A DNA stretch of 64,000 nucleotides from an uncultured Flavobacterium sp. Its GTDB lineage: Bacteria; Bacteroidota; Bacteroidia; Flavobacteriales; Flavobacteriaceae. The position numbers were made by a program, and so were the translations under genes. Shown piece after piece: positions 37,657-64,000 of the stretch. A model generated the notes under the pieces. That model searched no databases. It saw only the letters and a program-made list of their open reading frames with translations, and was not told the DNA's origin. The stretch lies in the NCBI GenBank assembly GCA_963511795.1, contig CAUPKP010000013.1, positions 9,279-73,278 of the forward strand, given 5' to 3'. The number at the start of each line of letters is the position of its first letter. Positions within the stretch are counted from its first letter, which is position 1.

Positions 37657-37690
37657 CCTCACCCCCAGCCCCTCTCCCAAGGAGAGGGGA
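37657..37690 (+). repeat. C-rich REP-like palindrome
   Basis: CCTCACCCCCAG-CCCCTCTCC-CAA-GGAGAGGGG; related copies at 43164, 43386, 63869 and 63956. Confidence 0.8.
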
Positions 37691-37880
37691 GCTACTCAAC
37701 TAATTTACATGTGCTTTGTGTAATTGCAAATTATATTGCCTGCCTGTCAGATTCTTGTGTATTGTCGAGAAGCTTTTTTTGACTAAGTCCAGAAAATGAG
37801 TATCGAATTTGATAAAAATAAGAGCAATCATTGTACATTAGCAACCAGTTTATATCAAAGAATTTTAAGAAACATACATT

Positions 37881-41811: not shown

Positions 41812-43146
41812 TTAGTTTTTAAATTTTTTAACAGGCTTTTCTGCTATTTCGGTTTTGTTCTGCAGCAAATAATTAGCCAACAATTTTTCAATCAGTTCGT
41901 CTTTGGTAAGATGATGAAAAATAGTTTTTATTTTTGTTTTTAATTCGGCATCCACATCGTGATTGGGTTTTGTCTTGAAGATTTGTTTCGCCCATAAAAG
42001 GGTGTTGTTTTCTTCGATACTCGCAACAGACGGTTTTTTGTATTTGGAAAACTGGATTCCCAATTCTCTTTCAAAATCAGCAATTTCAGATTCTTCTTCG
42101 GGCTGTAAAACGGTTAAAGAAAGTCCTTTGGCTCCTGCCCTAGCCGTTCTTCCGCTGCGGTGAACGTAAACTTCATAAACATCCGGCAAGTGATAATTGA
42201 CCACATAAGAAATCTCTTTTACGTCAATTCCTCTCGCAGCCAAATCGGTTGCCACCAAAATATTTATGTGTCCTTCACGGAATTGCTCCATAATTCGGTC
42301 ACGGATTCCTTGTGATAAACTTCCGTGCAATGCTCCTGATGAAAATCTGTTAATAGCTAAGTTTTTAGCCAATTTATTAACTGCAGCTTTGGTTTTACAG
42401 AAAATAATACCGCGTTCTCCTTCTTTCGAATTCAGGAAATGCATTAAAACATCCAGTTTTTCTATTGGATCTACCACAATATAGTTGTGATCAATCCCTT
42501 GATTACCGACAGTTTCCATGCTGGCGCTTACCGTCACTACGTTTTTGTTTAAGTAATTCTGGATTAACTGCTTAATGGTTCCTGGCATAGTCGCCGAAAA
42601 CAAAAAGGTTCTGTATGTTTTTGGTAATTCGGTTATGATTTCGTCCAAAGCTTCTTTTAGAATCGATACCATTTCATCGGCTTCATCGAGAACCAAGAAT
42701 TTGGTTTCTTTCAGGCTAATGGCTTTACGCTGCAGTAAATCGATTAAACGGCCTGGTGTTGCAACAACAATATGTGTCGGTGTTTTTAATCTTTCAATCT
42801 GAGGTTTGATTGGGATTCCGCCACAAACACTTGCAATCGAAACTTCAGGAAGATACTTTGCGTAACTTTCTAAATTATTGAAAATCTGCTGTCCCAATTC
42901 TCTTGTCGGCACTAGAATTACGGCTTGTACTGCTGAAATATTCGTATCGACTAATTGTAATAAAGGCAATCCAAAAGCAGCGGTTTTTCCTGTTCCAGTT
43001 TTGGCAAGTCCCACGATGTCAGTTGTGTTTGCTAACAATAACGGAATTGTTTTTTGCTGAATTTCGGTCGGGGTTACAATTCCCATTTCGGTAACCGCTT
43101 TTAGTATTCCTTTTGAAACTCCTAAATCTGAGAATTGTGCTGACAT
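41812..43146 (-). CDS. DEAD-box RNA helicase
   Basis: Q motif, AKTGTGKT, PTRELG, TPGRL, DEAD, SAT, TDLAARGID, HRSGRTARAG. Confidence 0.95.
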   Translation of the reverse strand: MSAQFSDLGVSKGILKAVTEMGIVTPTEIQQKTIPLLLANTTDIVGLAKTGTGKTAAFGLPLLQLVDTNISAVQAVILVPTRELGQQIFNNLESYAKYLPEVSIASVCGGIPIKPQIERLKTPTHIVVATPGRLIDLLQRKAISLKETKFLVLDEADEMVSILKEALDEIITELPKTYRTFLFSATMPGTIKQLIQNYLNKNVVTVSASMETVGNQGIDHNYIVVDPIEKLDVLMHFLNSKEGERGIIFCKTKAAVNKLAKNLAINRFSSGALHGSLSQGIRDRIMEQFREGHINILVATDLAARGIDVKEISYVVNYHLPDVYEVYVHRSGRTARAGAKGLSLTVLQPEEESEIADFERELGIQFSKYKKPSVASIEENNTLLWAKQIFKTKPNHDVDAELKTKIKTIFHHLTKDELIEKLLANYLLQNKTEIAEKPVKKFKN

Positions 43147-43163: not shown

Positions 43164-43215
43164 CCTCACCCCCCAGCCCCTCTCCAAAAGAGAGGGGAGG
43201 TTGATAAGTATATTT
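43164..43215 (+). repeat. C-rich REP-like palindrome, left direct repeat of a composite element
   Basis: CCTCACCCCCCAGCCCCTCTCCAAAAGAGAGGGGAGGTTGATAAGTATATTT. Confidence 0.8.
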
Positions 43216-43385: not shown

Positions 43386-43436
43386 CCTCACCCCAAACTC
43401 TTCTCCAAAAGAGGGGGGAGATTGATGCGTATATTT
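43386..43436 (+). repeat. Degenerate C-rich REP-like palindrome, right direct repeat
   Basis: CCTCACCCCAAACTCTTCTCCAAAAGAGGGGGGAGATTGATGCGTATATTT. Confidence 0.7.
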
Positions 43437-63294: not shown

Positions 63295-63924
63295 TTATAA
63301 CTTCAAAAAGTTTCCAAGGATTTTCTCCCCAACATCACCACTTTTTTCAGGGTGAAATTGAGTTCCGTAGAAATTATTATTTTCTAAAGCAGAGGAATAT
63401 TCCAGCTCATATTCGGTAGTAGCGATAGTTTCTTTGCAGATAGGCGCATAGAAGCTATGAACCAAATACATATACTCGTTCTCGGCAATTCCTTTGAATA
63501 AATCTGATTTAAGATTGTAAATGTTGTTCCAGCCCATTTGTGGTACTTTTACTTTTGAAGTGAATTTAACCACATCAACATCAAAAATACCCAATCCCTC
63601 AGTATTTCCTTCCTCTGATGAATTACACATCAACTGCATGCCCAGACAAATTCCGAATACGGGTTGTTTCAATGTAGGAATCAAAGTATCCAAACCGCTT
63701 TCTTTAAGCATTTTCATTGCATAACTTGCTTCTCCAACTCCAGGAAAAATCACTTTATCAGCAGACTTTATTTCTTCTGGATTATTGCTCAAAACTGCTT
63801 TGTATCCCAATCTTTCGATAGCAAACATAATGCTTTGAATGTTTCCTGCTCCGTAATTTATGATTACAAGCCCCCCAGCCCCCGAAGGGGGAGTTGATGT
63901 AGTTTGTGTTTTATTTTGATTCAT
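63295..63924 (-). CDS. hisH: Imidazole glycerol phosphate synthase glutaminase subunit with REP-derived N-terminal extension
   Basis: YGAGN, IFPGVG, GICLGMQ, VHS, QFHPEKS; N-terminus MNQNKTQTTSTPPSGAGGL precedes VIINYG. Confidence 0.95.
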   Translation of the reverse strand: MNQNKTQTTSTPPSGAGGLVIINYGAGNIQSIMFAIERLGYKAVLSNNPEEIKSADKVIFPGVGEASYAMKMLKESGLDTLIPTLKQPVFGICLGMQLMCNSSEEGNTEGLGIFDVDVVKFTSKVKVPQMGWNNIYNLKSDLFKGIAENEYMYLVHSFYAPICKETIATTEYELEYSSALENNNFYGTQFHPEKSGDVGEKILGNFLKL

Positions 63925-63981
63925 AAATATATTATTCTATTAAGACAGATTAGTTATTCCCCCTTCGGGGGTTAGGGGGCT
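63869..63981. repeat. Inverted pair of C-rich REP-like palindromes (REPIN-like)
   Basis: AGCCCCCCAGCCCCCGAAGGGGGAGT (63869-63894) and the reverse complement AGCCCCCTAACCCCCGAAGGGGGAAT (63956-63981). Confidence 0.85.
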
Positions 63982-64000
63982 ACAACATCCCTTTCGTACT
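63980..64000 (-). CDS. hisB: Probable C-terminal end of HisB (truncated by window)
   Basis: Reads STKGML*, matching the PSTKG.L C-terminus of IGP dehydratases; position directly upstream of hisH. Confidence 0.75.
   Translation of the reverse strand, partial: STKGML

Follow-up and report, generated by a model that had tools for sequence, protein, structure and literature searches.

A palindromic repeat doublet at a Flavobacterium hisB-hisH junction probably supplies the N-terminal codons of HisH

Short repeats fused to either end of an open reading frame, or to its interior, are known, the Rickettsia palindromic elements (RPE) among them (review PMC3184786). RPE (Ogata et al. 2000, listed in Delihas 2011, PMC3184786) form a short palindromic family that occurs in frame in working genes as well as between genes, and proteins tolerate the peptide that it encodes at their surface or termini (PMC3184786). 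Here we describe a comparable situation in a 64,000-nucleotide stretch (hereafter the window) of contig CAUPKP010000013.1 from an uncultured Flavobacterium sp., where an inverted pair of C-rich repeats occupies the junction between hisB and hisH and appears to have been recruited into the N-terminus of HisH. As with RPE, the palindrome is multi-copy and lies in frame in conserved genes: N-terminally in HisH, TrpG-like, HemE and BioA, internally in MetH and a GSCFA-family protein, and C-terminally in three genes. However, the RPE unit measures 105-146 bp and has no sequence relation to the doublet-forming unit of 25-28 nt found here, and its host is an obligate intracellular alphaproteobacterium rather than a free-living member of the Bacteroidota. 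Unlike RPE, the present repeat lies mostly at operon junctions, where it displaces start and stop codons.

In block architecture the repeat matches the BoxC/PIT/TM_ECO intrastrand-triplex repeats (Holder et al. 2015, PMC4666352), reading CCCCC-TTC-GGGGG-TTA-GGGGG with the N3 TTA as in 'type A'. Conserved stems, variable loops, some palindromic pairs and the character of hot spots of inter-strain variability are shared too (PMC4666352). The BoxC-type blocks are 9-nt CCCTCNCCC, whereas here they are 5-nt homopolymers. Moreover, the BoxC motif is 'always intergenic' in E. coli (PMC4666352), whereas about 20 of the 44 copies in this genome touch coding sequence, so that the family is not strictly intergenic. 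Like Neisseria REP2 (Morelle et al. 2003, via PMC3184786), a dispersed repeat is here associated with the ATG of a downstream gene; REP2, however, itself holds the promoter, ribosome-binding site and ATG, whereas here the ATG would lie in a locus-specific spacer between units and the repeat would be translated. Mycobacterium MIRU (Supply et al. 1997, via PMC3184786) are likewise small intra-operon intergenic repeats overlapping the flanking stop and start codons, but consist of 40-100-bp tandem units with small open reading frames and have no known incorporation into an enzyme, in contrast to the inverted hairpin doublets of this genome. The REP/REPIN-RAYT systems also comprise short GC-rich hairpins, often as inverted doublets at gene ends; here, by contrast, the RAYT-like genes are bordered by other hairpins and the repeat consensus has no GTAG or CGTC.

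A repeat search of the window returned the inverted pair at 63869-63892 and 63958-63981, with arms of 24 nt that are 92% complementary and stand 65 nt apart; two copies of the 13-nt core CCCCCTTCGGGGG are present in the window, against an expectation of 0.00 in 100 shuffles. All junction genes lie on the minus strand, and positions are those of the window (Table 1). HisB ends in …STKGML, followed by a TAG (63982-63980) whose A and G also open the outer arm, confirming an earlier sequence-only reading of this DNA that had placed an inverted C-rich pair here with the hisB stop overlapping its outer copy. In the sense of the genes, this TAG overlaps AG-CCCCC-TAA-CCCCC-GAA-GGGGG-AA, which is followed by 32 nt of AT-rich sequence, by ATG and nine codons, by ACT-CCC-CCT-TCG-GGG-GCT-GGG-GGG-CTT and by GTA-ATC-ATA-AAT-TAC-GGA. 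The downstream arm terminates in ...GGGGGGCTT and the next codons encode VIINYG directly; the same reading was thus correct that the usual M-K-I start is gone and that the inner copy adjoins the VIINY codons. The sole open frame at the junction (63295-63924, 209 aa) has the N-terminus MNQNKTQTTSTPPSGAGGLVIINYG. Its ATG at 63924, previously singled out as the only one in frame, is in fact the single ATG in any frame from hisB ...ATGTTGTAG through hisH codon 33, and a codon scan of the junction found no in-frame ATG, GTG or TTG between the downstream repeat and that codon. The peptide predicted for a start at this spacer ATG begins MNQNK… or (M)NQNKTQTTSTPPSGAGGLVIINYGAGNIQSIMFAIER.

HisH N-termini were aligned across relatives, a check proposed together with that reading; the comparison took in 80 Flavobacterium loci at species level and 19 relatives found by whole-genome searching (G000 denotes this genome, and L with a number the hisH locus of another species). 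In about 75 other Flavobacteriales loci a canonical hisH start stands immediately 5' of the conserved core, mostly as ATG-AAA-AT(A/T)-GT(N)-ATC-ATA-AAT-TAC = MKIVIINYGAGN and in a few cases with GTG/TTG or as MI-/MD-, whereas in this genome the ATG-AAA-ATA codons are absent and the repeat end …GGGGGGCTT stands in their position. L011 and L018 have their own, unrelated N-terminal extensions, and residues 1-18 of the present HisH found no match in the canonical-start loci.

The predicted extension also occurs beyond this strain. A repeat-derived segment is present in 15 other species-level loci, 13 of which combine the complete doublet with an adjacent upstream hisB and a spacer ATG; cassette carriers include sp. 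A45, F. succinicans LMG 10402, sp. ZT3R18, sp. RSSB_23, sp. ACAM 123, F. degerlachei and F. shii. L100 has the ATG, extension and downstream repeat behind an upstream region that is longer and partly different, while L038, from a metagenome-assembled genome, has different upstream sequence near a contig end together with the repeat-encoded segment. Dozens of protein clusters at 90% identity, with named sources including F. succinicans and Flavobacterium sp. 123, carry M(N/E)(Q/K)N(K/I)TQxxS-TPPSGAGG-(L/I)VIINYG and vary in length by whole codons only. L100 retains …GGGGGG-CTT-AAA-ATA-GTC (AGG-LK-IVII), and relative to it the two common cassette forms show alternative 6-nt in-frame deletions, leaving CTT-GTA here and ATA-GTA in sp. 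A45 and others.

Is the extension translated? An in-frame ATG lies 18 codons 5' of the (L/I)VIINY anchor, in an open frame, in 14 of the 15 other loci (17 codons in L088, 20 in L100). In a MAFFT alignment of 14 complete cassettes (the window and 13 others), 13 had 54 nt from the ATG to the anchor and the remaining one 51 nt, in every case a multiple of three and free of stops; in L100 the distance is 60 nt. In the same 14 cassettes the stretch between the upstream repeat and the ATG ranged from 15 to 50 nt, fell into all three length classes modulo 3 (3, 5 and 6 loci) and contained 0.128 stops per codon. This contrast between two segments of one cassette is the strongest argument that ribosomes would read from the spacer ATG. 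Pairwise differences in extension codons 2-10 were 0.30, 0.24 and 0.31 at positions 1, 2 and 3, and the sole indel was a whole codon; such near-free evolution is as expected for a dispensable tail. Furthermore, in two genomes where the repeat family is nearly gone (0 and 1 copies) the hisH arms have drifted, to TPLSGDGG and TPPFGAGE, with ATG and frame kept. From these comparisons HisH very probably initiates at ATG 63924 and is read through the downstream repeat. The comparison of starts, ATGs and frames across species likewise supports the proposal that the repeat replaced the hisH start codon and would now encode the peptide TPPSGAGG.

The alternative is that the repeat is non-coding and that HisH starts at a non-AUG codon downstream, either ATC/ATA at codons 21/22 or a codon at the repeat edge, the upstream frame being accidental. 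ATC and ATA are allowed, though rare, starts in table 11, codon 19 is ATA, ATT or ATC in six cassette-bearing species, and boundary starts do exist in the repeat family, with a TTG exactly at the repeat edge in an LptF/G-like gene and a GTG within the repeat in FixH. Nevertheless, codon 19 is CTT or CTC, which is no start codon, in this genome and eight others, and a start at codon 21 or 22 would truncate strand beta-1. An accidental frame, moreover, would not hold an ATG at a fixed 54 nt with indels in multiples of three only, beside upstream sequence that varies freely and contains stops. Initiation in Flavobacterium proceeds with no Shine-Dalgarno sequence and favours unstructured AU-rich start regions with A at -3 and few nearby AUGs (Baez et al. 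2019, PMC6847099); a start directly 3' of a GC hairpin would be unfavourable under this mode (PMC6847099). We therefore consider a downstream non-AUG start highly improbable. Initiation at the lone spacer AUG, by comparison, suits it: at this junction the AUG stands by itself within an AT-rich loop, and A is found at -3 in 10 of the 14 aligned cassettes, although the window itself has T.

Several points nonetheless weigh against initiation at the spacer ATG. L038 has no in-frame upstream ATG, TTG only. The predicted 23-bp GC-rich stem would need melting about 30 nt after initiation. The history of the cassette is patchy and recombinant, so that conservation across 14 species does not amount to 14 independent tests. 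Finally, an AlphaFold2 model of HisH (23-sequence alignment) reached a mean predicted local distance difference test score (pLDDT) of 52, too poor to inform on the tail; in this model residues 1-16 scored below 50 and beta-1 fell at 19-22.

Taken with these reservations, the preferred course of events would be as follows. The native ATG AAA ATA start of hisH has been lost, with the outer end of the downstream repeat now in its position. Initiation would occur at the lone AUG of the AT-rich spacer (63924), and the ribosome would run through the downstream repeat, read as T-P-P-S-G-A-G-G-L, and on into strand beta-1, VIINYGAGN. HisH would in this way bear an N-terminal tail of 18-19 residues, probably disordered.

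An insertion of this kind might instead have inactivated hisH, leaving the strain a histidine auxotroph or dependent on a HisH-like paralogue. The canonical start is indeed lost, and a gene of 42% identity lies elsewhere in the genome (G000 C19:64345-64956), presumably serving another pathway. The 209-aa frame is intact, however, and its core shows 80-97% identity to relatives and retains the motifs GICLGMQ and QFHPEKS. Pairwise differences in the hisH body of 13 repeat-bearing species were 0.096, 0.041 and 0.404 at positions 1, 2 and 3, a pattern that indicates strong purifying selection in the species bearing the repeat. The remainder of the his operon is intact (hisG-D-C-(lipoprotein)-B-H-A-F-IE), and the repeat state is common to cultured species such as F. 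succinicans and F. degerlachei. Loss of HisH function is therefore extremely unlikely.

The arms of the doublet are conserved in a manner that the peptide does not account for. Codons 11-18 (ACT CCC CCT TCG GGG GCT GGG GGG) belong without exception to four-fold degenerate families, and their third positions differ pairwise by 0.056, 7 times less than the 0.404 of the hisH body. Because these degenerate positions are nearly invariant, the downstream repeat is kept as DNA or RNA and not as peptide. Across the cassette, divergence was 0.10 in the upstream arm, 0.475 in the non-coding spacer, 0.28 in extension codons 1-10 and 0.10 in the downstream arm. Changes in the arms cluster in the 3-nt loop and linker while the local 5-bp stems persist, with one C-G to T-A double change in L045. 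As RNA, the doublet is predicted to fold at -55.5 kcal/mol (z = -5.7) into a stem of 23 bp whose 65-nt loop has the AUG at its centre. Covariation between the arms was considered as proof that this long-range stem is selected and had to be rejected, as the cassette alignment contained none: loop and linker changes in one arm were unmatched in the other. The repeat within the gene is thus conserved as a nucleic-acid element, by way of its local hairpin or of homogenisation of the family.

Whether the cause lies at this locus or in the family can be weighed on the same data. The doublet might act locally in the his mRNA, its stem or hairpins coupling hisH to hisB translation or stabilising or processing the transcript. 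The low divergence of the arms beside that of the spacer between them, the local stems retained as loops change (including the double change in L045), the strength of the predicted stem and the presence of some palindrome at the hisB-hisH junction in nearly every Flavobacterium all speak for such a role. The uncompensated changes in single arms do not, and PIT elements are without promoter or terminator activity in E. coli (summarised in PMC4666352). In addition, the arms decay precisely in the two genomes that otherwise lack the family, pointing to a family-level cause. A local function is consequently possible but doubtful, and because of this decay we lean towards maintenance at the level of the family, by gene conversion or a hairpin-acting enzyme, over an RNA function specific to his.

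A tree of 2.3 kb of hisH-hisA-hisF from 81 loci was used to follow the cassette. The repeat state required 15 changes, with well-supported branches forcing at least 12, and was scattered like shuffled labels; holding the 16 repeat loci together cost 1885 log-likelihood units (approximately unbiased (AU) test, p = 1.6e-10). A single ancient insertion followed by vertical descent was rejected on these grounds. The sister of the present locus starts HisH canonically with MKIVII and has a SnoaL-like gene separating hisH from hisB. Cassette and flank distances were barely correlated (Mantel r = 0.17, p = 0.09): sp. A45 and F. succinicans differ by 0.09 in the spacer and 0.42 at flanking third positions, while F. 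succinicans and RSSB_23 differ by 0.126 in the flanks and 0.43 in the spacer. No hitch-hiking of flanking gene sequence was detected (ratio of distances among repeat loci to distances between repeat and non-repeat loci about 1, falling to 0.86 in the final 60 nt of hisB alone), and spread by homologous recombination carrying the flanks was set aside for lack of this signal. Because the state is scattered, the distances are uncoupled and the flanks do not hitch-hike, the cassette has often been gained, lost or exchanged, with breakpoints at or inside the arms. These scattered loci, the weak Mantel correlation and the mosaic cassettes lie behind a bolder and rather unlikely reading, in which the doublet is a self-contained, mobile junction cassette (stop, hairpin, AT-rich AUG spacer, translated hairpin) that replaces the native stop and start signals of operon genes and moves, or is exchanged, from one Flavobacterium species to another at the same site independently of its flanks. 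Its driver could be a nuclease acting on hairpins, with DUF559 as a candidate, or recombination within identical arms.

The hisB-hisH junction is variable in other respects. An approximately 115-aa SnoaL_2-like gene lies between hisB and hisH in the closest lineage and some others (L120-L123, L042, L047; L075, L089), where HisH begins MKIVII. Nearly every other species has a palindromic element at this junction (L040-L110). About ten AT-rich classes are found, for example GTTGATAGTTGTTGG…, GGAAGTTCGAAGTGGGAAGTT…, TTTAAAGTTTCAGGTT… and CCTGCAAGGTTTTTT…, each scattered over the tree, and the GTAAGAAGTAAGTTGTAAGT class accompanies GTG/TTG hisH starts. This scatter fits the description of triplex-motif sites as hot spots of intergenic variability (PMC4666352). 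At the other end of the gene, the HisH homologues P0002 and P0032 from other strains carry repeat-encoded C-terminal tails (…NFLKIPPTPEGGVRK and …NFLAPQPPKGE); because of such tails, the hisH-hisA junction counts as invaded too.

HisH is one of several proteins in this genome with a predicted repeat-encoded N-terminus (Table 1). In each N-terminal case the repeat leads straight into the Pfam domain, whose match starts at profile position 1-3. Relatives of TrpG and HemE have an ATG exactly at the position of the repeat end CTA/CTT, so that ATGAAAAAAATACTAGTC in TrpG relatives compares with GGGGG-CTA-AAA-AAA-ATA-CTA-GTC here and M(I/L)KNDLFL in HemE relatives with GGG-CTT-AAG-AAC. Three relatives have another BoxC-like doublet 3 nt 5' of an intact trpG ATG, which looks like a possible precursor state, and the FAH-family gene with both starts may be an intermediate. 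At gene ends, the three genes reading out through the repeat have C-terminal tails …SPL(T/A)PEGG…, and in several genes the stop codon is the TAA or TAG of the repeat; the GSCFA-family protein contains a single in-frame internal unit, GVPPSGDRG.

Table 1 Locations of the junction features, of further repeat-bearing genes and of related hairpin elements (plain numbers, window positions; G000, elsewhere in this genome).
Feature	Location	Strand	Remark
hisB 3' end and stop	63980..64000	-	378-aa gene, remainder past window end (G000 C13:73258-74394)
Upstream (5') repeat unit AG-CCCCC-TAA-CCCCC-GAA-GGGGG-AA, non-coding	63957..63981	-	kept in orthologous cassettes; mean pairwise difference 0.10
AT-rich non-coding spacer part 5' of start codon	63925..63956	-	15-50 nt, with stops, across 14 species
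Putative hisH start ATG	63922..63924	-	sole junction ATG; in-frame counterpart in 14/15 other loci
Extension codons 2-10 (NQNKTQTTS), predicted	63895..63921	-	spacer-derived, weakly constrained
Downstream (3') repeat unit, codons 11-19 ACT CCC CCT TCG GGG GCT GGG GGG CTT, predicted T-P-P-S-G-A-G-G-L	63868..63894	-	third positions of 11-18 nearly invariant
HisH core VIINYGAGN… to stop, class-I glutamine amidotransferase domain	63295..63867	-	Pfam GATase profile position 1 at residue 20
Complete repeat doublet (cassette)	63869..63981	.	predicted RNA stem 23 bp
TrpG/PabA-like	G000 C8:39129-39746		first ATG in doublet spacer, no alternative start; MNNNISTPTVPPEGARG-LKKILVIDNY
HemE	G000 C5:149761-150828		first ATG in doublet spacer, no alternative start; MNNNDIQIPLSGARG-LKNDLFL
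BioA	G000 C5:9864-11168		first ATG upstream of single repeat, no alternative start; MSTTNIPPSGARG-LIERD
FixH-like	G000 C23:77192-77707		predicted repeat-encoded N-terminus; alternative GTG inside repeat
LptF/G-like	G000 C44:10638-11771		predicted repeat-encoded N-terminus; alternative TTG at repeat edge
FAH-family gene	G000 C36:43924-44583		own ATG retained, in frame with spacer ATG
Three genes reading out through repeat, and one GSCFA-family protein with internal unit	G000 C2:21699-22373, C10:25262-25708, C10:29843-30574, C33:42364-43329
Sister-family elements CCCCAGCCCCTCTCC-loop-GGAGAGGGG	37657-37695, 43164-43200, 43386-43420		same block architecture, different stem
CCTAYTAGGGGTRARTAGG hairpin sites	G000 C1:105095-105115, C4:97268-97290, C5:86109-86130, C13:86005-86026, C25:18467-18488, C44:22545-22565
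RAYT/IS200-like Y1_Tnp genes	G000 C5:138125-138469, C7:118759-119130, C4:178423-178767		each with own hairpins: GAGCCATCGGCTC / GTTCCTACAGAAC; CTCCAGCTTTAGCTGGAG; ACCCCGCTGGGGT

The internal case of MetH (1028 aa, G000 C10:40755-43841) is larger. A 424-nt in-frame insertion at 41981-42404 contains a complete DUF559 domain (PF04480, E = 3.5e-36) flanked by inverted copies of the hisH repeat (…RPPAPEGG… / …APPSGAGGAG…), and related double hairpins border a second full DUF559 gene (G000 C28:7425-7739) on both sides. Open frames of 800-1300 aa also contain many of the DUF559 hits in 26 other Flavobacterium genomes. Repeat and DUF559 counts showed no correlation among 26 Flavobacterium genomes, some having 19-21 repeats with no DUF559 and others 0 repeats with 3-6 DUF559. 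A partnership between DUF559 nucleases and the repeat stays a hypothesis.

Set against the systems described above, both the group of hosts and the kind of repeat are new, the BoxC-like type being described as strictly intergenic in E. coli. Equally new are the repeated displacement of start codons in core biosynthetic genes with a replacement ATG in the doublet spacer, the frozen synonymous sites within a gene and the patchy, cassette-like distribution over species. 'Selfish DNA inside genes' would accordingly not be limited to reduced intracellular bacteria: in a free-living phylum without Shine-Dalgarno initiation, a 25-nt hairpin repeat seems routinely to rewrite the ends of housekeeping genes (the starts of hisH, trpG, hemE and bioA, the stops and tails of others) without killing them. 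Sister species with a tailed and a tail-less enzyme offer a natural test case, as does a coding segment in which a constraint other than protein holds the synonymous sites fixed. For annotation, start calls that seem overlong in these genomes can be correct. The family also provides a data point on the nature of BoxC/PIT-type repeats and on DUF559 nucleases as possible partners.

The genome (5.15 Mb, 34% GC) contains 44 copies of the family at up to 4 mismatches to a 23-mer, arranged as 19 convergent doublets (18 of 61-163 nt, one of 424 nt) and 6 singles. The logo of the 44 copies reads (A/T)AG-CCCCC-TA(A/G)-CCCCC-GAA-GGGGG-AA-YT, the complement of CCCCC-TTC-GGGGG-TTA-GGGGG with its plan of pyrimidine block, N3, purine block, N3 (TTA) and purine block, and the outer AAG of the logo is, on the opposite strand, the CTT of Leu19 of HisH. 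Nearly all doublets occupy junctions of co-directional genes, and about 20 of the 44 copies overlap coding sequence. The his operon has a further doublet of the family at its hisG-hisD junction (G000 C13:77336-77449, about 4 kb past the window end); it lies 1 nt 3' of the hisG stop and 5 nt 5' of the hisD ATG, and is untranslated. We found no published description of this Flavobacterium repeat family; RepRanger merely tabulates two Flavobacterium genomes.

Examined against the layout of a MITE (terminal inverted repeats, a core conserved in the family, target-site duplications), the doublets have inverted ends, and their cores differ between loci in sequence and length (15-120 nt). The 44-copy logo showed no conserved target-site duplication beyond the (A/T)AG edge and no GTAG or CGTC tag. 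RAYT was rejected as the partner transposase, the three strong PF01797 (Y1_Tnp) genes being bordered by other hairpin families.

Three further elements in the window, at 37657, 43164 and 43386, had been assigned to the same family as the hisH repeat. This was not borne out: their stem differs, and the 23-mer search at up to 4 mismatches did not match them. They belong to a sister family, CACCCC(C)AGCCCCTCTCC-loop-GGAGAGGGG, with arms of 8-9 nt, and the genome has 26 copies of CCCTCTCC-N3-6-GGAGAGGG. Another small hairpin, CCTAYTAGGGGTRARTAGG, stands immediately inside the start-proximal repeat in six doublets, and is also present at the trpG junction of three relatives (L125, L127, L133).

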